Source: an uncultured Anaerolineales bacterium | Lineage (GTDB): Bacteria; Chloroflexota; Anaerolineae; Anaerolineales; UBA11858 | Length of the DNA stretch: 64,000 nucleotides | Reading direction: 5' to 3' | Assembly: GCA_964627755.1 (NCBI GenBank) | Contig: CAZVIH010000076.1 | Coordinates: 23,566 to 87,565, forward strand | Part shown: positions 7,527-64,000 of the stretch, in pieces | Layout: the number at the start of each line of letters is the position of its first letter | How positions within the stretch are numbered: position 1 is the first letter of the stretch | Position numbers and translations under genes: made by a program | The notes under the pieces: generated by a model | The model's input: the letters and a program-made list of their open reading frames with translations, nothing else | The model's database searches: none | What the model was told of the DNA's origin: nothing

Positions 7527-7549
7527 ACATCAGATTGAAGGAATGAAAA

Positions 7550-8023
7550 ATGCAGGATGGAGAAAAAATCTACTTAACAAAAGAAGGTAAAGAGAAGCTG
7601 CAGCGCGAGCTGGCAGATCTTGAAGGACCTCAGCGGCAAGATATCGCCGCCCGTTTAAAATCAGCTATTGAAATGGGTGACCTATCAGAAAATGCTGATT
7701 ATCACAAAGCTAAAGAAGATCAGGGTTTCCTGGAAGGGAAAATACTGGAGATCAAGTATACACTTGACTTAGCCATTATCGTGGAAGATAACATTAAAGG
7801 GCAGGATAAAGTCGGGGTAGGATGTAAGGTCACTGTCCAAGAAGAGGATCTTCCCCCTGAGACTTATTATCTGGTTGGCGGCAGGGAAGCGGATCCCGCA
7901 CAGAATAAGATCTCACATGTCTCACCTATTGGTAGCGCTCTGATGGATAAAGAAGTGGGTGAAATAGTTGAGATTAAAACCCCAGGGGGAAAATACTCGG
8001 TCAAGGTCCTTAATATTCAATAG
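7550..8023 (+). CDS. greA: transcription elongation factor GreA
   Basis: 157 aa. LTKEGKEKLQRELADLEG...RLKSAIEMGDLSENADYHKAKEDQ coiled-coil with the acidic tip, and a C-terminal ISHVSPIGSALMDKEVGE domain. Confidence 0.9.
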   Translation: MQDGEKIYLTKEGKEKLQRELADLEGPQRQDIAARLKSAIEMGDLSENADYHKAKEDQGFLEGKILEIKYTLDLAIIVEDNIKGQDKVGVGCKVTVQEEDLPPETYYLVGGREADPAQNKISHVSPIGSALMDKEVGEIVEIKTPGGKYSVKVLNIQ

Positions 8024-50292: not shown

Positions 50293-50577
50293 ATGAAGCC
50301 TAATGAGATTGTAGAAGCCCAGGAACTGGCGGAATATTGCGGTATCTTGGGAAACGCCCACAGGATTCTTATTGTCTGGGCGCTTGGGAAACGTGAGTTA
50401 ACTGTGAGTGAAATAGCAGAGGAGATTACTGCCTCAATGCAAAACACTTCTCAGCATCTTCGGCTGATGAAAAATAAAGGTGTTTTGCTCTCACGCAGGG
50501 ATGGAAGAGAAATCTACTACAGGATTGCAGATACAAAATTCAACCGGAGCTGTCCAATCCTATCAAAAAACTGTTAA
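50293..50577 (+). CDS. ArsR/SmtB-family winged-helix repressor (no alpha3 ELCVCDL metal site; cysteines at N- and C-terminal positions)
   Basis: LGNAHRILIVWALGKRELTVSEIAEEITASMQNTSQHLRLMKNKGVLLSRRDGREIYYRI. Cysteines lie in EYCGIL and in the C-terminal NRSCPILSKNC. Confidence 0.8.
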   Translation: MKPNEIVEAQELAEYCGILGNAHRILIVWALGKRELTVSEIAEEITASMQNTSQHLRLMKNKGVLLSRRDGREIYYRIADTKFNRSCPILSKNC

Positions 50578-50610
50578 TCCATTTGTTTTATTATAGACAA
50601 GGAGAAAGAA

Positions 50611-50865
50611 ATGTCCCCAGAAGAATTAGAAAAATTAGAAGCTGCAGAAGTTGTTGACGCCCGGGCGATGGCCTGCCCTGGCCCGCTGCTGGAAGCCAAA
50701 AAAAGCATCGGCAAAGTCAAAGTAGATGAAATACTTGAGCTTTGGGCCGGCGATCCCAATACTAAAAATGATATGCCCCGCTGGTGTGCCAAGGTTGGTC
50801 ACGAGTATCTGGGTGAAGTAGTAGCCGACGGATACGAAAGACTTTTCATTCGCCGCAAGAAATAA
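50611..50865 (+). CDS. TusA/SirA-family sulfur carrier protein
   Basis: 84 aa with DARAMACPGPLLEAKKSIGKV (the CPxP active-site motif). AAGGAG RBS. Confidence 0.8.
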   Translation: MSPEELEKLEAAEVVDARAMACPGPLLEAKKSIGKVKVDEILELWAGDPNTKNDMPRWCAKVGHEYLGEVVADGYERLFIRRKK

Positions 50866-50937
50866 ACCGAAACGTTCTAAGTATCCCGCAAGCAAGGATC
50901 TGCGGGATACTTCTATGTCCGCATAGAGGAAGTTAAC

Positions 50938-51390
50938 ATGGAAAATATGTCAGATTGCAATACCCCTAAAATTCTCATCCTGGCAACCACTTCGGGTGGA
51001 TATGCTGGAGCGGATGCAGTGGGACAGCTGCACACAGACTATCCCAACAACACCTATATTCTGCCAGTGCTTTGCCCCAGTATGTTTAACGAGGATTTTT
51101 ATCTCAGGATATTTAAACGCGGTATTGATGGTGTGATCGTCATGTACAGCGGAACAGACAGTCCTTATAAAGGTGGACCCGAACGGGCTGCCGAGTTAAT
51201 TAACAAAACCTACCCGAAAATGAAAGAAAACGGTATAGATACTCGCCGGTTGAAGCTAACCGCGATATGTACAGTATGTACCAAACCTTTCCTGAAAGAA
51301 GTCAATCAAATGAACACGCTGCTCCGGGAAATTGGATTTGTCAAGGATGAAATGGCGTCCTTTTCTGGAGAGGAAGCGGTTGCAGCCTGA
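50938..51390 (+). CDS. MvhD/FlpD-like (hydrogenase iron-sulfur subunit family) protein with the usual cysteine ligands substituted
   Basis: KILILATTSGGYAGADAVG...VLCPSMFNEDFYLRIFKRGIDGVIVMYSGTDSPYKGG aligns with the MvhD pattern K-I-V-x-F-C-C-N-W-C-S-Y-x-G-A-D...G-A-D-G-V-x-V-x-G-C-x-x-G-D-C-H. The Cys positions read A/T/S/G/S/S here. Confidence 0.6.
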   Translation: MENMSDCNTPKILILATTSGGYAGADAVGQLHTDYPNNTYILPVLCPSMFNEDFYLRIFKRGIDGVIVMYSGTDSPYKGGPERAAELINKTYPKMKENGIDTRRLKLTAICTVCTKPFLKEVNQMNTLLREIGFVKDEMASFSGEEAVAA

Positions 51391-51456
51391 TGGCTCGGAA
51401 AAAATGATTAGAAGAATAGGTTTAATAAAGTCGCAAACAAAAGAGGAGATACTGCC

Positions 51457-52779
51457 TTGAGAAAAATTCAAGTTGATGCTCTTGTCGTTGGCGGCGGCAT
51501 CGCCGGGATGCAAACTGCTCTTGATCTCGCGGACCAGGGCTACCAGGTCGCACTGGTAGAAAAGGAAGCCAGTATTGGCGGCAAAATGATTGCCCTCAGT
51601 AAAGTTTTCCCAACCCTGGACTGCTGCAGCTGCATCACAACTCCCAAGATGTCTGCCGTAGCGCATCATTCCAATATTCAATTACTTACCTATCACGAGG
51701 TTCAAACTCTCAATAAGACAGATGCCGGATTCAGTGCTGAGGTGTTGAAAAAACCCCGCTATGTCAATGAAGATGACTGCACCGGCTGCCGGCAGTGTGA
51801 ATACGCCTGCCCTATCAACCTGCCAAGCGCCTTTGATCTTGACTATGGCGCAACCAAAGCTGTCCGGGTCCCATTTTCCACCGCCGTACCACAGTATGCA
51901 GTCCTGGACATCGAAAATTGCATCCTGTGCGGAAAATGTGAAAAAGCCTGTCCGGTGAATTGCATTGATTTCACCCAGCAGCCGGAAACGATTGAGATCC
52001 AGGCCAAGGCAGTCATCCTGGCAACCGGCTTTGAGACTACATCAACACAGGCCAAGAAGGAATACGGCGCAGATAAAAATCGGAATGTCATCAATGCCAT
52101 GTTCATGGAACGCCTGCTGGCGCCCACCGGGCCCTATGGTCGAGTGATTCGCCCCGGTGATGGTAAAGAGCCGGATTCGATTGCTTATGTTCAGTGCGCG
52201 GGATCAAGGGACGCCACCTTAGGTGTGGAGTACTGCTCCCGGGTTTGCTGTATGTACGCAATCAAACAGGCCATGCTCCTGGCGGGTTCTCTCCCTATGG
52301 CAGATATCACCATTTATTACATGGATATCCGCACCTTCGGCAAAGGATATGAACAATTCTTCCAAAATGCCAAGGCAATGGGCATTGAATTTGTGAAAGG
52401 CAAAGTCGCTTCAATAAAGCAGGACGAAAATCAGAACCCGGTGCTCCGGGTAGAACTGATCGATGATGGTTCACGGGTCGAAGAAATTACCCATGATTTA
52501 GTTGTGCTCTCAGTTGGATTGCTGCCCCAGTATGATCCGGAAGCGATTTTCAATGTATCCCCGGGAGATGATGGTTTTATTGATATTCCCAAGATTAATA
52601 CCTCTCCCTGCCTGACAAAACGCCAGGGTATATTTGTCGCTGGCACATCTGGCGGCCCAATGGATATCGTAGACAGTATCATCATGTCTGGATCAGCGGC
52701 AGCAGAAGCAGCGGCTTATATCGAGTCTCAAAAAGAATCCCTGACACTGAGTAAAGAAAGTGAGGATGTCTATGCCTAA
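51457..52779 (+). CDS. HdrA-family FAD/FeS flavoprotein, QmoA-like (440 aa)
   Basis: TTG start after an AGGAG RBS. FAD motif VVGGGIAGMQTALDLADQG. HdrA cysteines LDCCSCITTPKM and CAGSRD...YCSRVCCMYAIK. Inserted ferredoxin CTGCRQCEYACP / CILCGKCEKACP. Confidence 0.8.
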   Translation: MRKIQVDALVVGGGIAGMQTALDLADQGYQVALVEKEASIGGKMIALSKVFPTLDCCSCITTPKMSAVAHHSNIQLLTYHEVQTLNKTDAGFSAEVLKKPRYVNEDDCTGCRQCEYACPINLPSAFDLDYGATKAVRVPFSTAVPQYAVLDIENCILCGKCEKACPVNCIDFTQQPETIEIQAKAVILATGFETTSTQAKKEYGADKNRNVINAMFMERLLAPTGPYGRVIRPGDGKEPDSIAYVQCAGSRDATLGVEYCSRVCCMYAIKQAMLLAGSLPMADITIYYMDIRTFGKGYEQFFQNAKAMGIEFVKGKVASIKQDENQNPVLRVELIDDGSRVEEITHDLVVLSVGLLPQYDPEAIFNVSPGDDGFIDIPKINTSPCLTKRQGIFVAGTSGGPMDIVDSIIMSGSAAAEAAAYIESQKESLTLSKESEDVYA

Positions 52780-54796
52780 CAAAGATAATGAAGAAATCAG
52801 GATTGGCGTATACACCTGTTATTGCGGGGGAAATATCAGCGATGTCGTCAATTGTGAGCTGGTTTCAAAGAAATTAGCCGAATTGCCCAACGTGGTTGTC
52901 TCAAGAACCAATATGGCTATGTGTTCTGATGTAGGCCAGTCACTGATCGAAGAGGATATCAAAGAAAATGGAGTCAATCGAGTGGTGATTGGCGCCTGCG
53001 CTCCCTCCCTTCACGAACAGACCTTCCGCGGCACTGTTGCCAGGGCTGGATTGAACCCATACTTGTATTATCATGTTGGAATTCGGGAACAGGACAGCTG
53101 GGTGCATAGAAGTGACTGTGAAGGTGCAACAGCAAAGGCAATCCGCTTGATGGCCTCCGGTTTGGCTAAAGCCAGATTGCTTGATCCCCTGGCCCCAATT
53201 CAGCTGACCGCAGAAAAACACGCCCTGGTTATTGGTGGCGGAATCGCGGGTTTAAAGGCAGCCTATGATATCGCCCGTAGAGGACTGCGGGTTACATTAA
53301 TCGAAAAAACCCCTTTCCTGGGAGGCAGGGTTGCCCAACTGGACACTCTCTTCCCTACCAATGAAAATGCAAAAGACACTTTACATGACCTGATCAACAA
53401 GGTTGCATCCCATCCCAATATCGTTATCTACACTCAAGCCCAGGTCAAAGGTGTAACAGGATATGTAGGCGACTACCAGATCCAGATCCAACAAGAATCC
53501 CGGGGAGTGGATGATACGAATGCTGAAAAGATCATGGCAGCCTGCGAGCAGACAGTCCCAGACGAGTTCAATTACGGATTAACCAGCCGTAAAGTAGTTT
53601 ACCAGGCCTATCCGGGTTGTTTTCCCCATACTCCAGCAGTGGACTGGGAGAATTATGATGGAAAACCAATCAAGGTAAATGGGGAGGATATCATCCTCAA
53701 GAATGATCCAGTATCCATTCCCCTTCATGTTGGAGCGATTGTTGTCGCAACCGGGTTTGATCCCTATCAACCCCGGCAGGGAGAATTCGGATTTGGTGAA
53801 ATCCCTGAAGTTGTCACCCTCCCGACTCTTATTCGCCATTTATACTTGATGGAAGATGGTCAAGAGTTTGTCTGGAACGGTCACCCCGTGCGTGATATTG
53901 CCATGGTGCATTGTGTGGGAAGCCGGGAAATTGATGGTGTTCATGAACCCCAGGAAGATGGAAAAGTGAACAATTACTGCTCCCGGGTTTGCTGTACTGC
54001 CAATTTACATATGGCGAATACCCTCAATGAACGTTTTCCCGGACTGAATATTTATAATCTTTACGAAGATATTCGGACTTACGGACGCGGCCATGAACAA
54101 TATTATATGGACGCACTGGATCAAATGGTCCGTTTCCTCCGTTTCCATGGAGATGACCGACCGACAGTTAAAAAAGCCCAGGCAGGCGACACTCACCCGG
54201 TGCTGGTCGAGATTCGCGATCATCTGACCAAAGGTCAGGAGCTGGAAATCGCTGTGGATCTGGTTGTTCTGGCAGTTGGCTTTATGCCCAGGGATATTGA
54301 TGACCTTGTAAAGATGCTCAAAATCTCCCGCGGAAACGACCGCTTCCTGGCAGAAATTCACCCCAAACTCCGGCCAGTCGAAACAGCTGTACCGGGAGTG
54401 ATCCTGGCAGGATCTTCTCAGAGCCCCATGAACGTGCAGGAAAGCTGTTCCGCGGCATCAGCAGCGGCAGCAAAAGTATCTGCGCTGCTAAGTTCGGGCC
54501 AGGTGGAACTGGAACCTTTTGTTGCCCAGGTCGATCTGGAAAAATGCACTGGGACGGGAGAATGTGTGACGGTCTGCCTCTATGAAGGTGCCGTCACTCT
54601 CAAGGATGTAGAAGTGAACGGACAAATCCTCAAACGTGCAGTGGTATCCCCTGCAAACTGTACCGGTTGTGGATGCTGTGTCAGCGCCTGTCCCAACCAG
54701 GCCATCGAAGTCCAGGGTTGGACCATCCCGCAGTACGACGCTATGCTGGACGCACTTGCCATGGATCTAGATGAAATGATGGAGGTAGCAAAATGA
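52766..54796 (+). CDS. HdrA-family FAD/FeS flavoprotein, QmoB-like (about 676 aa) with a C-terminal 2x[4Fe-4S] ferredoxin domain
   Basis: N-terminal VYTCYCGGNISD...IGACAPSLHE. FAD motif VIGGGIAGLKAAYDIARRG. HCVGSRE...YCSRVCCTANLH. C-terminal CTGTGECVTVC and CTGCGCCVSACP. Start ambiguous (GTG 52760, ATG 52766 or ATG 52772); it overlaps the upstream stop. Confidence 0.8.
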   Translation: MSMPNKDNEEIRIGVYTCYCGGNISDVVNCELVSKKLAELPNVVVSRTNMAMCSDVGQSLIEEDIKENGVNRVVIGACAPSLHEQTFRGTVARAGLNPYLYYHVGIREQDSWVHRSDCEGATAKAIRLMASGLAKARLLDPLAPIQLTAEKHALVIGGGIAGLKAAYDIARRGLRVTLIEKTPFLGGRVAQLDTLFPTNENAKDTLHDLINKVASHPNIVIYTQAQVKGVTGYVGDYQIQIQQESRGVDDTNAEKIMAACEQTVPDEFNYGLTSRKVVYQAYPGCFPHTPAVDWENYDGKPIKVNGEDIILKNDPVSIPLHVGAIVVATGFDPYQPRQGEFGFGEIPEVVTLPTLIRHLYLMEDGQEFVWNGHPVRDIAMVHCVGSREIDGVHEPQEDGKVNNYCSRVCCTANLHMANTLNERFPGLNIYNLYEDIRTYGRGHEQYYMDALDQMVRFLRFHGDDRPTVKKAQAGDTHPVLVEIRDHLTKGQELEIAVDLVVLAVGFMPRDIDDLVKMLKISRGNDRFLAEIHPKLRPVETAVPGVILAGSSQSPMNVQESCSAASAAAAKVSALLSSGQVELEPFVAQVDLEKCTGTGECVTVCLYEGAVTLKDVEVNGQILKRAVVSPANCTGCGCCVSACPNQAIEVQGWTIPQYDAMLDALAMDLDEMMEVAK

Positions 54797-55083
54797 GCGG
54801 TAAAGAAGATCTAAAAAACAAGGCTCAAATATTGAAAGATCTGCGCGTCGTACACCAAGAATCTGTAGATCGGACACAAGCGCTCTTAAAAGAACAGGGC
54901 AAAATTGAGCGAGAGATCCTTAAAATCATCAAGGATGAATCAATGACCATTCCCGCCATTGCCTCTCAGATCGAGCTGCCAACCCATCGTGTATTATGGT
55001 TCGTTACAGCTTTGAAGAAATACGACCTGATCCGGGAAGACGGCATGGATGGTGAATATGTCCTGTACAGGAAAGAGGAGTAA
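54793..55083 (+). CDS. small (96 aa) winged-helix-like protein embedded in the qmo-like operon
   Basis: ATGA overlap with the upstream gene. The segment EREILKIIKDESMTIPAIASQIELPTHRVLWFVTALKKYDLIRED looks like a MarR/ArsR-type wHTH. Confidence 0.5.
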   Translation: MSGKEDLKNKAQILKDLRVVHQESVDRTQALLKEQGKIEREILKIIKDESMTIPAIASQIELPTHRVLWFVTALKKYDLIREDGMDGEYVLYRKEE

Positions 55084-55087
55084 CAAT

Positions 55088-56263
55088 ATGGCCACTAGAG
55101 TGGATCCAAGTTTAATGTATGAATTGAAAGATTTCGGCGCTGCCGAAATTGAAAAATGTTACAACTGCGGGAACTGCACCGCAATCTGCCCCTTAACAAG
55201 TACAGACCATCCCTTCCCAAGAGATATGATCCGTATGGTCCAGCTCGGATTGGAAGATAATCTTTTGGAGAGCCTTGATCCTTGGCTGTGTTATTACTGT
55301 GGAGACTGCTCCTTGACCTGTCCAAAAGAAGCCGAACCCGGTGAAACTATGATGGCTGTCCGCCGCTGGTTAACCGCACAATATGACTGGACCGGACTGG
55401 CTGGTAAGTTCTATACCTCAAAACTCTGGGAGTTCGGCGCAATGATCCTGACAGCCTTATTTATCATCTTCCTGGCTGTAATCCTGCATGGCCCGATCGT
55501 GACCAGTTCAGTGGAGCTGAATACTTTTGCTCCTGTAAAACTTATGCACACTGCAGACTGGATCATGGCTGCAGGGTTGGTTTTCTTCATTGGAACCAAT
55601 ATCCTACGTATGCATCATTTTGTGATCACAAAAGGGACTCCTGTAAAAGTGCCCCTGACTGTTTACATCACTGAAGCCTGGTATTTCATCCTGCATTTGT
55701 TTACTCAGAAGAAATGGAGCGAATGCGCCCAGGACGAAGAGGATCAGAAAGAAAAAAACTTCAAACGACTGCCATGGATCAATCATCTGCTGATGGCCAG
55801 CGGATACGGTTTGATGCTGGTTCTGGTGATATTTTTCCTACCCTGGTTACAGACTGACGAGATCTATCCGATAACAAATCCCCAGCGCTGGTTGGGATAT
55901 TACGCAACCGCAGTTCTGCTGTATGGCGCGGGTTCTGTGATCTACAGCCGGATCAAACAAGGGAGACCTATTCATAAATTCTCCCACGCCAGCGACTGGA
56001 TTTTCCCTGTATTACTGTTTTTTGTGAGTCTGACAGGTATCCTCCAGCACACCTTCCGGTATCTGGGTTTACCTCTGGCGACCTACTATACCTATGTCAT
56101 TCACCTGGCCGCCGCCTTCCCGATGTTGGTCCTGGAGGTGCCATTTGGAAAGTGGGCTCACCTCTATTACCGCCCTCTGGCAATATATTTCCAGCAAGTA
56201 AGATTAAAAGCTGTTGAAATCAGCAAACGGCCCAAAGAGGAAATGGTCCCGGCGGGTCAATAA
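55088..56263 (+). CDS. QmoC-like fusion: HdrC-like 2x[4Fe-4S] domain + NarI/HdrE-like multi-His membrane (heme b) domain
   Basis: CYNCGNCTAICP and CYYCGDCSLTCP, followed by about 6 TM helices rich in conserved-looking His (MHTADW, RMHHFV, ILHLF, INHLL, LQHTF, VIHLA, KWAHLYYRP). AGGAG RBS before the ATG at 55088. Confidence 0.75.
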   Translation: MATRVDPSLMYELKDFGAAEIEKCYNCGNCTAICPLTSTDHPFPRDMIRMVQLGLEDNLLESLDPWLCYYCGDCSLTCPKEAEPGETMMAVRRWLTAQYDWTGLAGKFYTSKLWEFGAMILTALFIIFLAVILHGPIVTSSVELNTFAPVKLMHTADWIMAAGLVFFIGTNILRMHHFVITKGTPVKVPLTVYITEAWYFILHLFTQKKWSECAQDEEDQKEKNFKRLPWINHLLMASGYGLMLVLVIFFLPWLQTDEIYPITNPQRWLGYYATAVLLYGAGSVIYSRIKQGRPIHKFSHASDWIFPVLLFFVSLTGILQHTFRYLGLPLATYYTYVIHLAAAFPMLVLEVPFGKWAHLYYRPLAIYFQQVRLKAVEISKRPKEEMVPAGQ

Positions 56264-56380
56264 AGCAGCACAGTCGTGAGCAATGCAGAAAAAAGGAGTG
56301 TAACGAGTTAAAAATTCAAATAAAAAATATGCCAAGTTTTAAAATATCTATCAATCAAACATTCAATAAGGAGAAAGAAA

Positions 56381-56740
56381 ATGGCTAAAATGGCAATTAC
56401 CTGTAATGGAGACGGTCCAGTCAATATCATGCCCACCCTGATCATGGCTTCTTCCGGTTTGGCGCTTGACAATGAAGTAGTGATTTTCGTCTGTCCTGCC
56501 GGCGCCCGCTGGATGTTAAAAGGCGAACTGGAAACCCTGGGAACCCCCAAGGGCCTTCCCAATCCTGTTGAGCTCTTCAACACCATTATGGACCTCGGCG
56601 GCGAAGTGATCCTGTGCGAGCTGGCACTGGAAAACAAGGGCGTAGACCCCAAGGATCTGCGTGATGACAGGATCAAGATCACCAAAGCCCCACCCTTCCT
56701 GATGCAGATCGAGGATGCTACCATCACCTTCAGTTTCTAA
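56381..56740 (+). CDS. DsrE/DsrF/DrsH-like family sulfur-relay protein (COG2210-type)
   Basis: 119 aa. MAITCNGDGPVNIMPTLIMASSGLALDNEVVIFVCPAGARWM...GGEVILCELALENKG. AAGGAG RBS. Confidence 0.7.
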   Translation: MAKMAITCNGDGPVNIMPTLIMASSGLALDNEVVIFVCPAGARWMLKGELETLGTPKGLPNPVELFNTIMDLGGEVILCELALENKGVDPKDLRDDRIKITKAPPFLMQIEDATITFSF

Positions 56741-56767
56741 GTAAGTGTGAAGAAATCTTAAAAATAA

Positions 56768-56807
56768 AGGGACGAAATCCTTAAAACCGATCTCGTCCCT
56801 TTTTTTA
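56768..56807. terminator. intrinsic terminator closing the qmo-like operon (also faces the convergent LysR gene)
   Basis: AGGGACGA...TCGTCCCT stem followed by TTTTTTT. Confidence 0.7.
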
Positions 56808-56825
56808 TCTATTAACACAGCTCCA

Positions 56826-57779
56826 TTACAAATCTCGGATGGTATAGTTCAAATCTCCCCTGCTGGCCATTTCAATCAGATCTCGATTTGTTGGATCATG
56901 GATGAATCCCCAGAATGCATCCGCCGGCCGGTGGGATACTTTTAACCTTTTCCGGACCATATATATTGTCCGTATCAGGTTTATACCCTCTACAGGAATT
57001 GCAACTACATCGCCGCGTTCTAGTGCGCAGGCAGCAGCCAACTTCGAGACAAATGAGATCCCATAACCAGCTGCCACTGTGCGGACAATAGCTTCAGCGT
57101 TACCAACCTCCATAAAGTTTTTCAGGTCATCCAGACTGATATCATGGCTGGCCAATTCAGACAGGACAATTTTCCTTGTACCCGAAGTTTCCTCCCGCAT
57201 GATGATCGATTCTCCCAGCAAATCTTCCGGTTGGATCTTTTCCTGTGACACAAAAGGATGGTCTCTGGGCACGATCACTGTGATCAAATCATCGAAGAAT
57301 TCCTGCAGTTCAATTTCCTTTCCCGGGATTTCATAACTGACCACCCCCAGATTAGCATCTCCCTCCAATAAATTCAAAGCTACAGAGGTCGGAGTGCAAC
57401 GCAGCAATTTGGTTCGGACATTGGGGTGCCTGATCGAAAATCGGGCTGCCAAGTGGGGAAGTACGTATTTTCCAGCTGTTGTGCTGCAGGCTATCTGGAG
57501 ATTTCCAGCCATTCCTTCCTTGAGGGATTCCATCATTTCCTGCATCTCAATGGAGTCCTTTAATACCCGCCTGGCCCAGGGAACCAGCAATCTGCCAGCA
57601 TCAGTAAGTTTAATAGTGCCAGCCTGGCGATTAAATAAGGTCACACCCAGCTCTTTTTCCAGGGTTTTTATATGATGGCTGACTGTGGGCTGAGATAAAT
57701 GAAGGATTCTGGCTGCTTCTGAAAAATTGAGGTTCTGAGCGGCGTGTAAAAAAGTTTCGATCCGAAGAAGATCTACCAT
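56826..57779 (-). CDS. LysR-family transcriptional regulator
   Basis: MVDLLRIETFLHAAQNLNFSEAARILHLSQPTVSHHIKTLEKELGVTLFNR, plus a periplasmic-binding-like effector domain. ATG at 57779 chosen. Confidence 0.85.
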   Translation of the reverse strand: MVDLLRIETFLHAAQNLNFSEAARILHLSQPTVSHHIKTLEKELGVTLFNRQAGTIKLTDAGRLLVPWARRVLKDSIEMQEMMESLKEGMAGNLQIACSTTAGKYVLPHLAARFSIRHPNVRTKLLRCTPTSVALNLLEGDANLGVVSYEIPGKEIELQEFFDDLITVIVPRDHPFVSQEKIQPEDLLGESIIMREETSGTRKIVLSELASHDISLDDLKNFMEVGNAEAIVRTVAAGYGISFVSKLAAACALERGDVVAIPVEGINLIRTIYMVRKRLKVSHRPADAFWGFIHDPTNRDLIEMASRGDLNYTIRDL

Positions 57780-58097
57780 TTTTATCCTTGTAAAGTTACA
57801 GTCTAAAATAATCTTACCATACCTCATTTTAATCTTATCCAGACTACTTCTTATAAACAAACAGGCTCCCAGGAATCTGGAAACCTGTTTTTGATTTTTC
57901 AGTCTTAATATAACTTAACCATAAGACGATTCAGCACTTCTATACACTTTTGATTACGTTTTCTTATTGTTCTTTCTTATCTATCTTATAACTAAAAGCT
58001 ATTTAACGGGTGGGTTATTTATAACAAATGCTGATGAATTTGTGCTAACATTCACAAGTAAGAAGAGGATATTACCTTTTAAGAGAGGTTTTTTGAT

Positions 58098-59120
58098 ATG
58101 AAAATAAAAAGAATCGCCCCCGCCCTATTAACCGGTCTGATTGTTGGTTTATTGGCTATGACCTTGTTTACTGGCATGGTTTCAGCAGCCCCAAATACTC
58201 AAGGAGAAGATCCGCCTGAGAAGATATTGACTGACAATGATTGCGTTAAATGTCACCGGAATGTCGCTGATGATTGGTCCCATAGTCCGCATGCTCACGC
58301 TTATGATGATCCGGCTTTCCAGGAACAATGGATCGGTCTGGGCACTCCGGATACATGTCTTGCTTGCCATACCACCAATTTCATGTCAACCACTGGTGAA
58401 TATGAAACCGAGGGTGTTTCCTGCCAGTCCTGCCATGGTGCTGTCACAGAAAATCATCCCGACCAGGTGGTTCCCACAATTGTCGATTCTTATTACTGCG
58501 GCTCCTGCCATACTACAACTTTGAGCGAATGGCGCAGCACAGGACATGCCTCAAGTGACGTAGACTGCATGGACTGCCATAATCCTCACAGCCAACAACC
58601 GCTCTTTAATGATCATGATGATCTCTGCATTAATTGTCACAAAGACAGCATGGGAGATTATCTAAACGATCTCCATGTTCAAGAAGATATTGGCTGCGTG
58701 GATTGCCATGCGCTGGTACTCCCCCCTGATGTCGTCCCAGAAGACGGTATCGTCCCAACTGGACATGGGTTCACTATCTCAGCTGAGACCTGCGTTGCCT
58801 GTCATACAGATTCCCTGCACGCTGGGTTTACATTGCCCGGTTACGAAAACGGCGCAGCTAATAATGAACCTTTCCACACCAGCACTGAAGAACACGGGAG
58901 TACTGAAGGTGCTCAGCCGTTGACAGATACCACTCAGTCAAACGATCTAACAGATACTCAACGCATCCAAACCCTTGAGACTGCTCTTGCCAGCAGTCGG
59001 GTGAGCAATTTGTTCCAAGGCGCTGTGATCGGCCTGGTCCTGGGTGGAAGCACTGCCTGGTTCGTGGGTCAGAATCTTCGCGGCCGGTCAGATGAGGAGG
59101 AAGAGGAAAATGATCTCTAA
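58098..59120 (+). CDS. octaheme c-type cytochrome with an N-terminal signal/anchor and a C-terminal TM helix
   Basis: Eight CxxCH motifs: CVKCH, CLACH, CQSCH, CGSCH, CMDCH, CINCH, CVDCH, CVACH. C-terminal FQGAVIGLVLGGSTAWFVG and an acidic tail. Confidence 0.85.
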   Translation: MKIKRIAPALLTGLIVGLLAMTLFTGMVSAAPNTQGEDPPEKILTDNDCVKCHRNVADDWSHSPHAHAYDDPAFQEQWIGLGTPDTCLACHTTNFMSTTGEYETEGVSCQSCHGAVTENHPDQVVPTIVDSYYCGSCHTTTLSEWRSTGHASSDVDCMDCHNPHSQQPLFNDHDDLCINCHKDSMGDYLNDLHVQEDIGCVDCHALVLPPDVVPEDGIVPTGHGFTISAETCVACHTDSLHAGFTLPGYENGAANNEPFHTSTEEHGSTEGAQPLTDTTQSNDLTDTQRIQTLETALASSRVSNLFQGAVIGLVLGGSTAWFVGQNLRGRSDEEEEENDL

Positions 59121-59952
59121 AAAGGGATCCGCCAAAAAAACTAATAAAAAGAAAGCCCTGGTAACCCGGAAGGAATTTCTACAGATCGCTGGGTCAACAG
59201 GAGCAGCTGCTCTAGTCACCCAGCTGATCACGACGGGACCACTGTCCCCTGACGCAATCCAGGGGATTGGCGAAAGAACCCATGGGGAAGAAGGGAATTC
59301 CGAACATAACTGGTGTATGGCAATTGACCTCAGCAAATGTATTGGGTGCCAATATTGTATTTGGGCCTGCCAGGCAACTAACGATGTTCCAGATGACAAT
59401 ATGCGCTGGAACGTGGGCTACCCCGAACAGACCGAGAACGGAACAGAGTTCTTTATGACCAGGCCCTGCCTGCATTGTGAAGAAGCTCCTTGTGTAAAAG
59501 TCTGTCCGGTAGGTGCAACCTGGAAGCGAAAAGACGGCATAGTCACCATGGATTACAAAAGGTGTATCGGCTGCCGCTACTGCGAGGTTGCATGTCCTTA
59601 TGATGTCAGGCGATTTAACTGGGATGTTTCCGAAAAGGAAAATCCTTATCATCCTACCTGGGGATCGCCTGAAGTTGAGCGCCGTTCCCGGGGAGTTGTT
59701 GAAAAATGCACTTTCTGCAGCCACCGAATTGATCGCGGATTGGCTCAAGGGCTAACACCGGGAATCGATCGTGAAGCCACACCAGCCTGCGTGAATATTT
59801 GCCCAGTGAATGCCCGAATCTTTGGTGATCATAATGATCCCGAAAGCCCAGTATCCATTTTCGTAAAGAATAATGAGACCTTCCGCCTGAGGGAGGATTT
59901 TGGCACTAAACCCAAAATTCATTATGTGCGCCCTGAAAAGGAGGAAGTTTAG
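59110..59952 (+). CDS. periplasmic 4x[4Fe-4S] ferredoxin subunit of the NrfC/PsrB/DsrO/HmcB family
   Basis: Tat-like leader ...LVTRKEFLQIAGSTGAAALV. Cluster motifs CIGCQYCIWAC, CLHCEEAPCVKVCP, CIGCRYCEVACP and CTFCSHR...CVNICP. The ATG at 59110 overlaps the cytochrome gene end. Confidence 0.85.
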   Translation: MISKKGSAKKTNKKKALVTRKEFLQIAGSTGAAALVTQLITTGPLSPDAIQGIGERTHGEEGNSEHNWCMAIDLSKCIGCQYCIWACQATNDVPDDNMRWNVGYPEQTENGTEFFMTRPCLHCEEAPCVKVCPVGATWKRKDGIVTMDYKRCIGCRYCEVACPYDVRRFNWDVSEKENPYHPTWGSPEVERRSRGVVEKCTFCSHRIDRGLAQGLTPGIDREATPACVNICPVNARIFGDHNDPESPVSIFVKNNETFRLREDFGTKPKIHYVRPEKEEV

Positions 59953-61182
59953 ATGTTTAAATTTGATCTTTCCATTCCTAAAGAAGGCCGGGAGCGAGCC
60001 TGGTGGATCTGGATCGGTGTCCTGGGGCTGATGCTGGCTGTTGGATTATTTGGTGCCATCCGGGTCTTGGTTAAGGGTCTGCACGTGACTGGTTTATCTG
60101 ACCAGGTCCCCTGGGGGCTGTGGATTACCCAGGACCTGAGTTCAATCGCAACAGGTGCTGGTGCTTTTACTTTCTCGGCAATTGTCTACCTGTTCAGAAT
60201 CAAAAAATACCAGCCCATCGCCCGGGCCGCTGTTTTTGTGGGTTTCCTTGGTTATTCATCCGCGATGCTTGCCCTGGCCATGGATATCGGTCGACCAGAC
60301 CGGTTCTGGCATCCCCTGGTTTATTGGAATGTTCACTCAGTTTTATGGGAGATCACCTGGTGTGTAATCCTTTATTCCATTGTGCTTGTGCTGGAATTTA
60401 TACCGATCTTACTTGAAGGCAAATATTTTGACCGCTGGCCAAAACTTCGCAAGTATGGAGATTTAATCCACAAGGCATCACCCGTATTTGCCGCTATCGG
60501 GTTGGCATTATCCCTGCTCCACCAATCATCCCTGGGTGCTACTTACGGTGTGTTATCGGGACGGGCTATCTGGTATAAACCTTCCTTGCCGGTTATGTTC
60601 ATTCTCTCTGCTGTTGCAGGGGGGATATCCATGACACTGTTATTGACCATTCTGGTTGGCAAGCTGAATCGCCGGCAAATTATCAAACGTGAACTGCAAT
60701 ATGATATCTCCCGCATCGCCGGTTATGCCCTGCTCGCTTACCTGTATTTAAAGATCTGGGATTGGGCTGCAACATCATATTACAGCTCATCTCCCGGTAC
60801 AACCGAAGCTCTGGCTTTATTACAGTCAACCACGCCCTATACAAAAACCTTCTGGTGGATTGAGATCGTGCTGGGAGGTATAGTCCCGGCCATGATACTT
60901 TTGAATGCCAACTTCAGGAAAAATGACCGCTATACAATACTGGCGTTGGGAGCAATCATCGCAGGCGTGACTGTGAATCGCTGGAATGTTACCCTCTCTG
61001 GTCTGGTCGCTCCGCCTCGCTGGTCCCCGGGAGTTCTTGGTAATTTGATCTCTGCCTCTTATGTGCCCACTTGGAATGAAATTATCGTTTCAATCGGAAT
61101 CATTGCCTATGCCCTGCTGGCTTTCAGTTTTGGCATACGATATCTGCCAATCTACCCCAAAGACAAAGGTTCTGCCCATTAA
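59953..61182 (+). CDS. NrfD/PsrC-family polytopic quinone-interacting membrane subunit (409 aa, long form)
   Basis: Starts 1 nt after the FeS gene stop. About 10 predicted TM helices. DIGRPDRFWHPL loop is typical of NrfD-like proteins. Confidence 0.8.
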   Translation: MFKFDLSIPKEGRERAWWIWIGVLGLMLAVGLFGAIRVLVKGLHVTGLSDQVPWGLWITQDLSSIATGAGAFTFSAIVYLFRIKKYQPIARAAVFVGFLGYSSAMLALAMDIGRPDRFWHPLVYWNVHSVLWEITWCVILYSIVLVLEFIPILLEGKYFDRWPKLRKYGDLIHKASPVFAAIGLALSLLHQSSLGATYGVLSGRAIWYKPSLPVMFILSAVAGGISMTLLLTILVGKLNRRQIIKRELQYDISRIAGYALLAYLYLKIWDWAATSYYSSSPGTTEALALLQSTTPYTKTFWWIEIVLGGIVPAMILLNANFRKNDRYTILALGAIIAGVTVNRWNVTLSGLVAPPRWSPGVLGNLISASYVPTWNEIIVSIGIIAYALLAFSFGIRYLPIYPKDKGSAH

Positions 61183-61208
61183 CCTGGCCCCAGATGGGAT
61201 TTTAGAAT

Positions 61209-61247
61209 ATAAACAAACGCTTCAAAAGTATTGAAGCGTTTGTTTAT
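61209..61247 (+). terminator. intrinsic terminator after the NrfD-like gene
   Basis: ATAAACAAACGCTTCAA-AAGTA-TTGAAGCGTTTGTTTAT, a 17-bp perfect stem. Confidence 0.65.
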
Positions 61248-61339
61248 ATCAGCCAGGATATAGCTTTCACCTAGACGTAATTTATTGATTTCTGATTAGA
61301 AAAATCAGGCCAGGAATCGGCAACCCATAATATTTTCTT

Positions 61340-62290
61340 TTGGATATAATAATGATTACTAATAAATTATCAGATATGATCCTAGAGAATCCAATGTTAG
61401 ATGCTCACCAACTTAACATATTTCTTGTTGCCGCTGAAACTCTGAATTTCACCCAGGCTGCAGAAAGACTCCATATGAGTCAACCAAGCGTCAGCCAGCA
61501 TATACGGTCCCTCGAAAAACACTTTGACGAAATGCTATTTATCAGACAGGGAAGATCCCTGATTCTTTCAGATGCAGGCCGGATATTGATACCAATGGCC
61601 CAGCAGTTTGTTAAGCAGAGCACCAGGATTAACGAAGCCATGTCCTCCCTGAAAGGGCACATCAAAGGCCTGATCAGTATCAGTTGCAACGCCCTCACAG
61701 GTAGATATACATTACCGGAATTCTTTTCCCAGTTCCATCAGAATTATCCAGAAGTGACCATCTCCTGCCGGACAGATGGATGCGGCTACCCGTTAGAATC
61801 TCTCCGAAATGGGGATATACATTTTTTATTCACAAATCTGGAATCCATGATTGAGCCCTGCTACCAAACCCAGCTGCTCCTGACAGATGAGATCATGTTA
61901 ATCACCCCCAAGAATCATCCCTGGGCAAAACGTGAATATATCGAGGTTGAAGAGTTGCTTGAAGAAAAGTTTATCCTGCCCGCCGGAAATACTACAACCT
62001 ACTTAAAAGTGAATGAGGCCCTGGCTGTCAAGAATCTGTCGCTGTTACAGCTGGATTCGTTCCTGACACTGGATAATGCCGAAGCCATCGTTCTTTCTGT
62101 AAATAAAGGCCTGGGACTAAGTTTCAGCTCCACCACTATTTCATCAACGATCAGCGAAACTGTCCCCGTTCCGATCAAAGATATCAAAATCAAACAGGGG
62201 TTGTACATCGTAAGGGATAAAACTCAATTGACTACTGCAGCAAGAGATTCTTTCTGGGATTTCATAATAACAGCCAGCGCAGCCATCTAG
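61340..62290 (+). CDS. LysR-family transcriptional regulator (start uncertain; possibly ATG 61394)
   Basis: LDAHQLNIFLVAAETLNFTQAAERLHMSQPSVSQHIRSLEKHFDEMLFIR HTH, plus an effector domain. Confidence 0.8.
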   Translation: MDIIMITNKLSDMILENPMLDAHQLNIFLVAAETLNFTQAAERLHMSQPSVSQHIRSLEKHFDEMLFIRQGRSLILSDAGRILIPMAQQFVKQSTRINEAMSSLKGHIKGLISISCNALTGRYTLPEFFSQFHQNYPEVTISCRTDGCGYPLESLRNGDIHFLFTNLESMIEPCYQTQLLLTDEIMLITPKNHPWAKREYIEVEELLEEKFILPAGNTTTYLKVNEALAVKNLSLLQLDSFLTLDNAEAIVLSVNKGLGLSFSSTTISSTISETVPVPIKDIKIKQGLYIVRDKTQLTTAARDSFWDFIITASAAI

Positions 62291-62432
62291 GAAAAAGCGG
62301 AAACCGGTTTATATATTAAACCCAGGGCAATTTGCATCTAGCTCAGCTCTGTAATTCATCATCCCCCCACCGATCACTTAAGGTCTCATCGATATTTTCC
62401 ATCTCGCATACTGTAACATGGCTTCTGTTAGT

Positions 62433-62448
62433 GTGTGACATTTGTCAC
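62433..62448. promoter_or_regulatory. CRP/FNR-family-like site TGTGA-N6-TCACT upstream of a TATAAT box
   Basis: TGTGACATTTGTCACT (9/10 match to TGTGA-N6-TCACA). TATAAT lies at 62471-62476, which puts the site centre roughly 40 bp upstream of a likely TSS. Confidence 0.35.
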
Positions 62449-62496
62449 TATCTCGATCTAACCCAGCTGTTATAATCTTCACAAACTTATATACCC

Positions 62497-62508
62497 ATAT
62501 GTACATAT
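62497..62508. promoter_or_regulatory. 12-bp perfect palindrome abutting the second arsR-like start codon (candidate operator)
   Basis: ATATGTACATAT, immediately 5' of the ATG at 62509 and downstream of the TATAAT box. Confidence 0.35.
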
Positions 62509-62862
62509 ATGTCTATAAACAATAATTCCCTTGCGCAGGAAATCAATCAATTACATGCCAGGATCTGTTCAGCAATTTCAGAACCTAATCGTATATTATT
62601 AATATATGCTGTTGCTGAAAAACCCCAAAATGTAAATAATTTGGCGGAAATCGTAGGTATCAGTCAATCTGCGGCTTCACGCCATCTCAAAGTCCTCCGT
62701 GAGCGAGGATTGATCCAGGCCCAGCGTGATGGCGCCCAGGTGATCTATTCCCTGACAGATGAACGTTTTATTCTAGCCCTGGATTTACTTCGCGAGGTTA
62801 TGCTGGACCAGTTATCACAACAAGCCAATCTGATTAAACAAAATCAATCCAATGAGAGGTAG
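62509..62862 (+). CDS. ArsR/SmtB-family winged-helix regulator
   Basis: SEPNRILLIYAVAEKPQNVNNLAEIVGISQSAASRHLKVLRERGLIQAQRDGAQVIYSL. Confidence 0.8.
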   Translation: MSINNNSLAQEINQLHARICSAISEPNRILLIYAVAEKPQNVNNLAEIVGISQSAASRHLKVLRERGLIQAQRDGAQVIYSLTDERFILALDLLREVMLDQLSQQANLIKQNQSNER

Positions 62863-62865
62863 TCT

Positions 62866-64000
62866 ATGAAACAATCCAAATTCAGCTGGATATTTGGTGC
62901 CGTTTTTGTCCTTTTTATCATTGTGATCCCAATTGTGATCTTTTTCCCCCGGGGAGAAAAATCGATCAGTTCCGATCCATGGGAGAACGTGCCCCTGAAA
63001 GTCCCTCACACCGATCACTCTGCAATTGTGACAGGACCATTTGAAAACGGCCCAGATGTTACCAGAGCATGTCTGGAATGCCATGAAGATGCAGCCCAAC
63101 AGGTCATGGCGACAGTCCATTGGACCTGGGAAAGTAAACCATACCAGATCGAAGGCAGAAATAGCACAGTCACTGTTGGAAAAAAGAATTCCATCAATAA
63201 CTTCTGCATCGGTATTCAGGGCAACTGGCCCAGCTGTACTTCCTGTCATGCAGGTTATGGTTGGGAAGACGCCAATTTTGATTTCAACGATGAAGAGCTA
63301 GTGGACTGCCTTGCTTGTCACGATAATACCGGCACTTATGTGAAAGGACTAGCCGGTATTCCAGTTGAGGGAGTGAACTTATTGGAAGTCGCCCAGAGTG
63401 TCGCCGCTCCAACCCGGGAAAACTGCGGCAGCTGTCATTTTAATGGCGGCGGTGGCAACGCTGTAAAACATGGTGATCTAGATGAAACCCTCTATTTCCC
63501 GCCATCCAACGTGGATATTCATATGGGTGAACATGATTTTTTGTGCACAGACTGCCACCAGACAGAAAATCACAATATCATGGGCCGGTCTATCTCAGTC
63601 AGTCTGGATGATGAGAACCAAACCTACTGCACAGATTGCCATACCGAAGATCTTCATGATGATGACCGCATCAATACCCATATTGACTCGGTTGCTTGCC
63701 AAACCTGCCATATTCCAAACGCGGCCACCCGCGATGCAACCAAGATGTACTGGGATTGGTCCACAGCTGGCAGTGACGAGATCGAAGAAAGTGTTCACAC
63801 TTATCTTAAGATCAAGGGCAGTTTTGTATATGAAGGCAATTTCACACCAACTTATATGTGGTACAACGGTGGTGTAGCCGAACGCTATATCCTAGGAGAT
63901 AGGATCAATCCGGATGAACTCGTTCATATCAACTTGCCCGCAGGTGATATCACAGACAATTCTGCCAAAGTTTTTCCTTTCAAAGTGCACGTCGCAAAAC
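62866..64000 (+). CDS. membrane-anchored octaheme cytochrome c of the tetrathionate-reductase (Otr) family; the C-terminus runs off the window
   Basis: Absent from the ORF track because it has no in-window stop. The ATG at 62866, 4 nt after the arsR stop, reads MKQSKFSWIFGAVFVLFIIVIPIVIFF...CLECH...WTWES...NNFCIGIQGNWPSCTSCH...CLACH...CGSCHFNGGGGNAVKHGDL...CTDCH...CTDCH...CQTCH. Seven CxxCH motifs are visible. Confidence 0.8.
   Translation, partial: MKQSKFSWIFGAVFVLFIIVIPIVIFFPRGEKSISSDPWENVPLKVPHTDHSAIVTGPFENGPDVTRACLECHEDAAQQVMATVHWTWESKPYQIEGRNSTVTVGKKNSINNFCIGIQGNWPSCTSCHAGYGWEDANFDFNDEELVDCLACHDNTGTYVKGLAGIPVEGVNLLEVAQSVAAPTRENCGSCHFNGGGGNAVKHGDLDETLYFPPSNVDIHMGEHDFLCTDCHQTENHNIMGRSISVSLDDENQTYCTDCHTEDLHDDDRINTHIDSVACQTCHIPNAATRDATKMYWDWSTAGSDEIEESVHTYLKIKGSFVYEGNFTPTYMWYNGGVAERYILGDRINPDELVHINLPAGDITDNSAKVFPFKVHVAK

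Follow-up and report, generated by a model that had tools for sequence, protein, structure and literature searches.

Within a 64,000-nucleotide stretch of DNA from an uncultured Anaerolineales bacterium (Chloroflexota; contig CAZVIH010000076.1), hereafter the window, three co-directional genes on the forward strand at 58098-61182 encode an octaheme cytochrome c, an NrfC-like iron–sulfur protein and an NrfD-like membrane protein. This three-gene module is likely to be a link between the menaquinone pool and multiheme cytochromes c whose ancestral partner, encoded by a selenocysteine cytochrome/rhodanese operon, has been lost in this genome, the module itself being kept and probably re-used. From its sequence, the module appears to belong with the NrfCD-type menaquinone:cytochrome c oxidoreductases, as an uncharacterised variant that occurs throughout the Anaerolineae and is similar to the Nhc and Qrc complexes. 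The kind is already known; the features of the variant are its eight hemes, a C-terminal membrane anchor, the lack of a fourth subunit and the Chloroflexota host. Anaerolineae are abundant in sediments, the subsurface and wastewater plants, but what is known of their respiratory chains comes almost entirely from lists of genes. The module defines a conserved, uncharacterised quinone:cytochrome unit, the same octaheme architecture recurring in dozens of clusters formed at 50% identity, and its regular partner is a predicted selenoprotein cytochrome without prior annotation. The message of the window itself is more modest: an ordinary electron-distributing complex, with its usual partner gone. 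Nothing specific was found in the literature on the module in Chloroflexi or Ardenticatena, nor on selenoprotein cytochromes of the Chloroflexi.

The three genes are real, tightly packed and translationally coupled (Table 1). The NrfC-like gene most likely begins at ATG 59110, the start used by gene callers on the identical public contig, rather than at GTG 59044 as given in the open reading frame list. This ATG is preceded by GGAGGA and lies in an 11-nucleotide overlap with the cytochrome stop, and the nrfD ATG comes immediately after the NrfC stop. An earlier reading of this DNA, made from the sequence alone, had described three overlapping or abutting genes for an octaheme cytochrome, an NrfC-like and an NrfD-like subunit, and the eight CXXCH motifs, the 16 cysteines, the Pfam NrfD match and the gene packing bear it out. 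It had also stated that the operon encodes no molybdopterin, NrfA-type or cytoplasmic partner; this holds, in that neither the open reading frame list nor Pfam reveals such a subunit between the two flanking LysR genes. Scans for sigma-70 promoters and intrinsic terminators across 56700-63000 gave counts not above those of shuffled sequences, leaving the operon boundaries uninformed, and an Rfam scan of the whole window returned zero matches.

The octaheme cytochrome consists of a probable Sec-type signal peptide, a compact eight-heme domain (residues ~45-245), a low-complexity linker, a conserved amphipathic stretch, a C-terminal transmembrane helix and an acidic tail. Its orthologues keep the count of eight CXXCH motifs and conserve eight histidines outside them (H65, H67, H120, H150, H164, H193, H223 and H241; seven invariant, one near-invariant), which are enough for bis-histidine ligation of all eight hemes. 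Since eight motifs and eight distal histidines are packed into a domain of some 200 residues, there would be no space or open site for catalysis, and the pattern reads as the signature of an electron wire rather than of an enzyme. The sequence-only reading had taken the protein to be doubly anchored. The C-terminal helix is indeed strongly conserved (FQG..G...G...AW..N), but the N-terminal anchor is doubtful, as the hydrophobic stretch ends at a conserved, cleavage-like AxA-type site (VSA/AP, with A30 invariant). The N-terminus thus looks like a cleavable signal peptide, which would make the C-terminal helix the sole anchor. In NCBIfam the protein matches generic multiheme models only, with no match to HmcA. 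The comparison of heme spacing with NrfB and MtrA that had been suggested earlier led no further than weak, collinear profile matches, at 45 bits to the DmsE/MtrA decaheme family (cut-off 192) and 19 bits to NrfB (cut-off 167). At E<=1e-30 the wider family extends to 78 representatives in a library of 50%-identity clusters, and eight CXXCH motifs with a hydrophobic C-terminus or C-terminal anchor occur in 69 of 93 full-length representatives. Even beside distant members (29-37% identity) the next gene is again NrfC-like, and the order cytochrome-NrfC-NrfD is kept.

The NrfC-like subunit has 16 cysteine columns conserved in at least 95% of 65 orthologues, which suffices for four cubane clusters, and it matches Pfam Fer4_11 at 1e-15. 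Ranked by NCBIfam score, DsrO comes first (206.8 bits, cut-off 200), followed by QrcC (170, cut-off 400), TtrB (156), ArrB and NrfC (141, cut-off 378); the HmcB model reaches 87 bits against a cut-off of 420. Its matches in the PDB are PsrB (2vpw_B, 4e-37), ArrB and the C-terminal part of ActB (1e-34 to 2e-36). As had been noted from the sequence, the leader for twin-arginine translocation (Tat) reads TRKEFL instead of carrying two arginines, and it departs from the motif S/T-R-R-x-F-L-K. The orthologues mostly have the standard pair, with RR in 49 of 65, RK in nine (the window's clade only), RS in four and RG in one. The RS and RG variants (e.g. TRSDFL, TRGEFM) are unusual natural departures from the twin-arginine rule.

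The NrfD-like subunit matches PF03916 over almost the whole profile (106 bits, E 3.5e-30; residues 45-352 on positions 2-310 of 313). Its best NCBIfam model is QrcD at 302 bits over the full length (cut-off 570), ahead of HmcC (178, cut-off 550), HybB (155), DsrP (74, cut-off 350) and NrfD (30, cut-off 348). An AlphaFold2 model contains about ten long helices, and its Foldseek matches at E<=1e-3 are confined to ActC and ActF of alternative complex III (ACIII), ActC giving TM-scores of 0.63-0.69 with 6btm_C at the top (0.69); the eight-helix PsrC is not among them. By sequence, a phmmer search of the PDB gave zero hits and a profile search gave ActC only, at a marginal E of 0.0045. The subunit accordingly falls in the 10-helix subgroup of the NrfD/PsrC superfamily, to which ActC, QrcD, HmcC, HybB and DsrP belong and whose helices form two four-helix bundles and a helix pair, a placement made from ranked NCBIfam scores and fold matches in place of a reference-based phylogeny. 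This agrees with the earlier description of the architecture as a quinone-interacting core of cytochrome c, NrfC and NrfD. The menaquinone site of QrcD involves D120, S138, L140, E142 and I67 (PMC6303296; PMC8076601). At a constant offset of nine, these residues line up by spacing, not by direct alignment with QrcD, with D111, S129, L131, E133 and I58 of the module, all of which are invariant (D111 and S129 across 35 orthologues). The distance of 18 residues between D111 and S129 is also that found in QrcD and NhcC (PMC8076601). This suggests that the NrfD-like subunit has a working quinone site.

The absence of a catalytic subunit does not mean that one is missing, because Nhc, Hmc and Qrc likewise distribute electrons without one. 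Nhc and Qrc are cytochrome:quinone oxidoreductases that lack a catalytic subunit, Qrc containing an inert QrcB (PMC8076601; PMC6303296). NhcABCD and HmcABCDEF of Desulfovibrio, which are cytochrome c3:quinone oxidoreductases, share with the module a periplasmic multiheme cytochrome, a protein with four [4Fe-4S] clusters and a 10-helix NrfD-like subunit (PMC8076601), and HmcC is the second-best model for its membrane subunit. The module differs in having eight hemes rather than nine or 16, a helix anchor at the C-terminus where their cytochromes are soluble, neither NhcD nor HmcDEF nor any further operon gene, failed cut-offs for HmcA, HmcB and HmcC, and a host in another phylum. To QrcABCD, the menaquinone reductase of sulfate reducers, it is tied by QrcD and QrcC, the first- and second-ranked models for its membrane and iron–sulfur subunits, by a membrane-anchored multiheme cytochrome, and by the apparent conservation of the quinone-site aspartate, serine, leucine and glutamate at constant offset (PMC6303296). 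It lacks, however, the cofactor-less, molybdopterin-like QrcB (there is no molybdopterin-family open reading frame between the LysR genes of the window, nor at the module in 80 relatives), it has eight hemes and a C-terminal anchor in contrast to the six hemes of QrcA, and its scores are far under the cut-offs. QrcD is so far known only from Desulfobacterota.

Similar limits apply to other systems. Of solved structures, ActC of ACIII (ActABCDEF) comes nearest to the NrfD-like model, and the iron–sulfur subunit matches ActB in its C-terminal part. ACIII takes electrons from quinol to c-type hemes by way of a multiheme subunit anchored in the membrane. By contrast, the module has no ActB1 molybdopterin-like domain, ActF, ActD or ActE, a single NrfD-like gene and a stand-alone iron–sulfur protein of 280 residues; ActA has five hemes, and the similarity to ActC is at fold level only. 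Clusters of Methanoperedenaceae and metal reducers have the same three-part architecture and a proposed role in carrying electrons from menaquinone to outside cytochromes, NrfD, iron–sulfur and multiheme clusters being read as menaquinone:cytochrome c oxidoreductases (PMC7327174). They too are uncharacterised and were compared by description only; the Anaerolineae family, unlike them, is tied to a selenocysteine cytochrome/rhodanese operon and not to metal reduction. In the octaheme sulfite reductase systems MccACD/SirACD an octaheme cytochrome is again encoded alongside NrfC-like and NrfD-like subunits. MccA is a large protein, of ~700 residues, with a special CX15CH heme. An MccA-type catalytic octaheme was rejected for the module, whose cytochrome has 340 residues, a heme domain of ~200 residues, eight ordinary CXXCH motifs and eight distal histidines. 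MccA is the enzyme of its system and MccD is of the eight-helix type (PMC8076601), in contrast to the 10-helix subunit of the module. Membership of NrfABCD was likewise rejected, the NrfC, NrfD and NrfB models scoring 141 against 378, 30 against 348 and 19 against 167 bits, with no NrfA.

The ancestral setting of the module emerges from its relatives. One genome per GTDB species was scanned with an NrfD alignment, giving more than 580 confirmed matches; locus counts refer to the best 80 of these, all from Anaerolineae with 50-95% NrfD identity, around which the neighbouring open reading frames were clustered. The closest homologues all come from metagenome-assembled genomes of Anaerolineales or Anaerolineae. 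The order cytochrome-NrfC-NrfD is kept in 65-70 of the 80 species-level loci, an octaheme cytochrome being found in 70, an NrfC-like gene in 68 and a LysR gene in 58. Further neighbours are a ~400-residue cytochrome with 11 CXXCH motifs (52 loci), a ~590-residue rhodanese protein (49) and a ~100-residue protein with one CXXCH (37), as compared with nine loci each for an Otr-family cytochrome and a cytochrome c/b fusion. In the typical layout the rhodanese, 11-heme and 100-residue genes, read from left to right, lie on the reverse strand, followed by LysR where present and then by the octaheme, NrfC and NrfD genes on the forward strand. Amongst 46 well-flanked species-level loci (those with 7.5 kb or more upstream and 6 kb or more downstream), the module is adjoined in 42 by the selenocysteine multiheme cytochrome, the tetra-rhodanese or both. 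A full divergent partner operon is present even at L090, where the octaheme cytochrome is 37% identical (L numbers denote loci). The most distant loci, L080-L085 (51-52% NrfD identity), carry neither the selenocysteine cytochrome nor the rhodanese and have tandem and downstream octaheme paralogues around nrfCD, which suggests the same core wired differently.

The 100-residue and 11-heme genes are one gene that gene callers divide at an in-frame TGA. Only the first part carries a signal peptide, which is of the lipoprotein type, and the TGA joins the two parts in 46 of 52 loci, in the invariant context G-[E/V/P]-G-TGA-G-G-x-V-A-P-L-E-P-W. Eleven nucleotides past the TGA lies a 6-bp hairpin, GGCUCC-GUU-GGAGCC, resembling a selenocysteine insertion sequence (SECIS), in which two pairs show compensatory changes, with a GCCUCC/GGAGGC variant in several genomes. 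The predicted product is a lipoprotein of ~495 residues with 12 CXXCH motifs and one selenocysteine near the N-terminus. It belongs to no NCBIfam family and has no relative in the PDB. The rhodanese lipoprotein encoded directly after it has four domains and passes the NCBIfam model "rhodanese-related (seleno)protein" (119 bits, cut-off 115). In Geobacter, MccSep is a five-heme selenoprotein polysulfide reductase needed for sulfur respiration and is encoded beside the rhodanese ExtH (PMC13510729). The MccSep/ExtKL and ExtH system of G. sulfurreducens resembles the partner operon in its UGA-encoded selenocysteine in a multiheme cytochrome, its downstream SECIS-like hairpin and its accompanying rhodanese-family lipoprotein (PMC13510729). 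MccSep, however, has five CXXCH motifs rather than 12 and its selenocysteine at U325 rather than in an N-terminal G-x-G-U-G-G motif, and the Anaerolineae rhodanese differs from ExtH in its four domains. By this analogy, the selenocysteine cytochrome and rhodanese are a candidate polysulfide, sulfane-sulfur or selenium oxidoreductase, and probably act as one.

In the window the 3.5-kb partner operon has been deleted. The alignment by blastn with L004 (87% NrfD identity) has two anchors: 57700-57791 of the window corresponds to the 5' end of LysR in L004 (4343-4436), and 57909-58198 to L004 7950-8241. These are 118 bp apart in the window and 3.5 kb apart in L004, and tblastn detects zero remnant of the selenocysteine cytochrome or rhodanese in the window. 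The operon is intact in L004, L011 and L013, and other close relatives form a graded series of decay that ends with the window. At L009 the selenocysteine codon is TGG and the rhodanese is cut to 51 residues (L009:6216-6356 and 6417-7967), at L008 (93%) only the last 219 residues of the rhodanese are left (L008:7255-7911), and at L051 (95%) only 33 (L051:7740-7838). Tryptophan, whose TGG is one base removed from TGA, and not cysteine, occupies the selenocysteine position at two loci, L009 (GEGWGGEVAP) and L075 (GEGWGSVPP); such a replacement is uncommon in families of selenoproteins and may be a sign of inactivation. The module itself has intact reading frames, and its ratio of nonsynonymous to synonymous substitution rates (dN/dS) between the window and L008 is 0.03-0.07, at a dS that is saturated (>1).

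A mechanism may be proposed from these observations. The three gene products would form one NrfCD-type membrane complex acting as a menaquinone-pool:multiheme-cytochrome c oxidoreductase. The 10-helix NrfD-like subunit would have its binding site for menaquinol or menaquinone close to the outer side of the membrane, and the presumably Tat-exported NrfC-like protein, with its four iron–sulfur clusters, would sit on top of it. The octaheme cytochrome, held by its single C-terminal helix, would provide a wire of all-bis-histidine hemes to or from other membrane-anchored redox proteins on the outside, such that the complex distributes electrons and is not itself an enzyme. Across the Anaerolineae its dedicated ancestral partner would have been the divergent operon for the selenocysteine 12-heme cytochrome and the four-domain rhodanese, to which the module would provide the link to the quinone pool. 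Since the module appears to be under purifying selection and lies in a sulfur-compound island, it probably now serves another extracytoplasmic cytochrome in this genome.

Several points weigh against this account. Every NCBIfam equivalog cut-off fails except that of DsrO, which is passed marginally, so that function can be transferred at superfamily level only. The structural models are of limited help, that of the NrfD-like subunit having moderate confidence (mean predicted local distance difference test, pLDDT, 66.7) and that of the octaheme cytochrome, built with 32 orthologues, being unusable (mean pLDDT 42). The correspondence of the quinone site is one of residue spacing. The partner cytochrome has no detectable match to the PDB entries of MccSep, and for this reason a role as sulfur reductase is an analogy only. 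Purifying selection after the loss of the partner does not follow strictly, because dS is saturated and the loss is undated. Finally, the loss itself is established for this contig, and a second copy of the operon may exist elsewhere in the genome.

In a wider interpretation, the module would be the quinone interface of a so far undescribed, Anaerolineae-wide respiratory system. The terminal enzyme of this system would be the selenocysteine 12-heme cytochrome together with the four-domain rhodanese, a "Psr without molybdenum" unrelated in sequence to MccSep, and the lineage of the window would have lost the enzyme and re-used the module, possibly with Otr. This extension is tentative, and we think it somewhat more likely to be wrong than right. 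If the partner does prove to be a sulfur or selenium reductase, it would represent a second, independent heme/selenium route to sulfur respiration, and the inference of sulfur cycling by Chloroflexota from metagenomes would change.

Electrons could also flow in the reverse direction. As in Qrc and Nhc, the octaheme cytochrome would then collect electrons, from the extracytoplasmic oxidation of reduced sulfur compounds or from other cytochromes, and the complex would pass them to menaquinone, with energy conserved because the protons for its reduction are drawn from the cytoplasm. The order of scores for the NrfD-like subunit, with QrcD first and HmcC and HybB after it, is in keeping with this, QrcD and HybB being quinone reducers and the direction of HmcC being uncertain (PMC6303296). 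So is the apparent conservation of the QrcD-type quinone site, and the neighbouring rhodanese, TusA, DsrE and YeeE proteins suit sulfur oxidation as well as reduction. The evidence is nevertheless split. The best sequence match, QrcD, is a quinone reducer but the best fold match, ActC, is a quinol oxidiser, and direction cannot be read from sequence. Furthermore, MccSep, the one multiheme selenoprotein that has been characterised, works as a reductase (PMC13510729), and the neighbouring Otr and Phs-like proteins are reductases as well. Reverse flow is possible on this evidence, though less likely than not.

The sequence-only reading had favoured a different partner. It proposed a chain from quinol through NrfD/NrfC and the octaheme cytochrome to the Otr-family octaheme cytochrome downstream, the module being a dedicated quinol dehydrogenase for Otr in an Nrf-like chain built from different cytochromes. 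Otr does lie where it was said to, starting 1.68 kb past nrfD, although part of the span assigned to it, 62509-62862, encodes an ArsR regulator. Its identity is clear, TIGR04315 scoring 446.9 bits (cut-off 375) even on the gene truncated by the end of the window, and the full 483-residue protein (L001) has eight CXXCH motifs. The Otr operon lies next to the module both in the window and in eight other related species, both systems are extracytoplasmic and membrane-anchored, and with the usual partner gone the module needs some acceptor. Beyond position 64000 of the same contig, however, Otr proves to belong to a separate, tight, ArsR-led operon (L001:12557-19006) running ArsR-Otr-910-residue fusion-YeeE-YeeE/rhodanese with gaps of 3, 16, 74 and 12 nucleotides. 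The 910-residue protein is a fusion of a seven-heme cytochrome c domain with a PhsC/FdnI-type cytochrome b, and it scores 132.8 bits for the cytochrome b subunit of thiosulfate reductase. We take its design to resemble Geobacter CbcL, and the fusion is present in all eight loci with an intact, readable flank downstream of Otr. Because this gene starts only 16 nucleotides past Otr, Otr has a quinol-dehydrogenase candidate of its own. The module is separated from the Otr operon by a LysR gene and by intergenic gaps of 157 and 218 nucleotides. Otr is found near the module in only seven of the 46 well-flanked loci, all with at least 75% NrfD identity and forming one clade, effectively a single acquisition event, and other clades hold a PhsABC-like cluster with its own cytochrome b at the same position. 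Together with the different, deeply conserved partner elsewhere, this makes the Otr chain the weaker reading. The sequence-only reading had itself named a consistent link in relatives to another catalytic gene as evidence against it, and 42 of the 46 well-flanked loci show such a link, to the putatively catalytic selenocysteine cytochrome/rhodanese operon. As a dedicated arrangement the Otr chain is poorly supported and rather improbable, and the link between module and Otr is probably a matter of position, although the octaheme cytochrome may still pass electrons to Otr in this partner-less genome.

A slimmer chance still attaches to the module as the inner-membrane entry point for extracellular electron transfer to minerals or electrodes through large surface cytochromes. 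Such a role has been proposed for NrfD, iron–sulfur and multiheme clusters in metal reducers and Methanoperedenaceae (PMC7327174), and large multiheme cytochromes abound in the Anaerolineae (bioRxiv 10.1101/2021.08.23.457424). Cytochromes of ~740 residues with 10 hemes, or additional octaheme paralogues, stand beside the module in L026, L036, L058 and L080-L085. In the window, however, a count of CXXCH motifs reveals no multiheme cytochrome besides the module octaheme and Otr, the dominant neighbours amongst relatives are the selenocysteine cytochrome and rhodanese, and the surroundings are sulfur-related rather than metal-related. That the module is a functionless leftover heading for decay is a little less probable again. 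The operon for its partner is gone from the window and in the course of decay in L008, L051 and L009, and the clade of the window has exchanged the RR of the Tat motif for RK. Against this, the three reading frames are intact, the cofactor ligands and the upstream region are conserved, and the low dN/dS was obtained against L008, which itself lacks an intact partner; the RK leader is found also where the partner is intact (L004, L011 and L013). The idea that the module is the DsrOP part of a DsrMKJOP-type complex, serving dissimilatory sulfite reduction or the oxidation of sulfur, was rejected as very improbable despite the marginal pass of DsrO and the upstream Qmo-like/Hdr-like cluster with TusA and DsrE, since DsrP fails at 74 bits (cut-off 350), DsrM, DsrK and the triheme DsrJ are missing at the locus in the window and in 80 relatives, and eight hemes with eight distal histidines contrast with the three hemes of DsrJ (PMC6303296).

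Table 1. Coordinates of the module, its surroundings in the window and related features at other loci (L numbers).
Feature	Position	Strand	Basis or remark
Octaheme cytochrome c, 340 residues	58098..59120	+	exactly 8 CXXCH
NrfC/PsrB-type iron–sulfur subunit, 280 residues, Tat-type leader TRKEFL	59110..59952	+	16 conserved Cys
NrfD-family integral membrane subunit, putatively quinone-interacting, 409 residues, ~10 helices	59953..61182	+	Pfam NrfD 3.5e-30
Divergent LysR-type regulator	56826..57860	-	Pfam HTH_1 + LysR_substrate; gene callers start at 57779
Deletion scar, ~118 bp in place of ~3.5 kb (selenocysteine cytochrome + tetra-rhodanese)	57791..57908	.	blastn against L004
Conserved upstream region of module, presumed promoter/operator	57909..58097	+	72.6% nucleotide identity to L004 counterpart
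Second LysR-type regulator, between module and Otr operon	61340..62290	+	Pfam HTH_1 + LysR_substrate; same protein cluster as upstream LysR
ArsR-family regulator, opens Otr operon	62509..62862	+	Pfam HTH_5 3.9e-14
Otr-family octaheme cytochrome, 483 residues in full, N-terminal membrane anchor; not part of module	62866..64000 (runs past window end)	+	TIGR04315
Selenocysteine 12-heme cytochrome (predicted)	L004:6407-7891	-	same in 46/52 loci, e.g. L022, L072, L060
Selenocysteine 12-heme cytochrome (predicted)	L090:2400-4217	-	
Four-domain rhodanese lipoprotein, ~540-600 residues	L004:4568-6355	-	counterparts in 49/80 loci, always directly after selenocysteine cytochrome
PhsABC-like cluster	L006:11629-17800		
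PhsABC-like cluster	L007:11635-18158		also at L018, L050, L054, L056

Most of the window is housekeeping chromosome, with genes for MutS, alanyl-tRNA synthetase, a Mur ligase, YceG, LarC and ABC transporters. Sulfur-related content begins at ~50.3 kb and runs in the order Qmo/Hdr-like cluster, LysR, module, LysR, ArsR-Otr. The first of these (50293-56740) encodes an ArsR-like regulator, TusA, an MvhD-like protein, two HdrA-like flavoproteins (440 and 678 residues), a 96-residue protein, a QmoC-like iron–sulfur/membrane protein (200 bits, cut-off 300) and a DsrE-like protein, a Qmo/Hdr-like cluster with sulfur carriers for which no aprAB is present in the window. Downstream of nrfD, other clades carry a further ArsR-led cluster, which comprises a three-heme protein of ~309 residues, split YeeE genes and a molybdoenzyme of the PhsABC-like type that has a cytochrome b of its own. 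This site would appear to be a hot spot for cassettes of sulfur respiration. In the first kilobases of the window, two UbiA-family prenyltransferases (532-1482 and 2550-3563), candidates for quinone, lipid or heme O-type prenylation, lie around a GHMP kinase.

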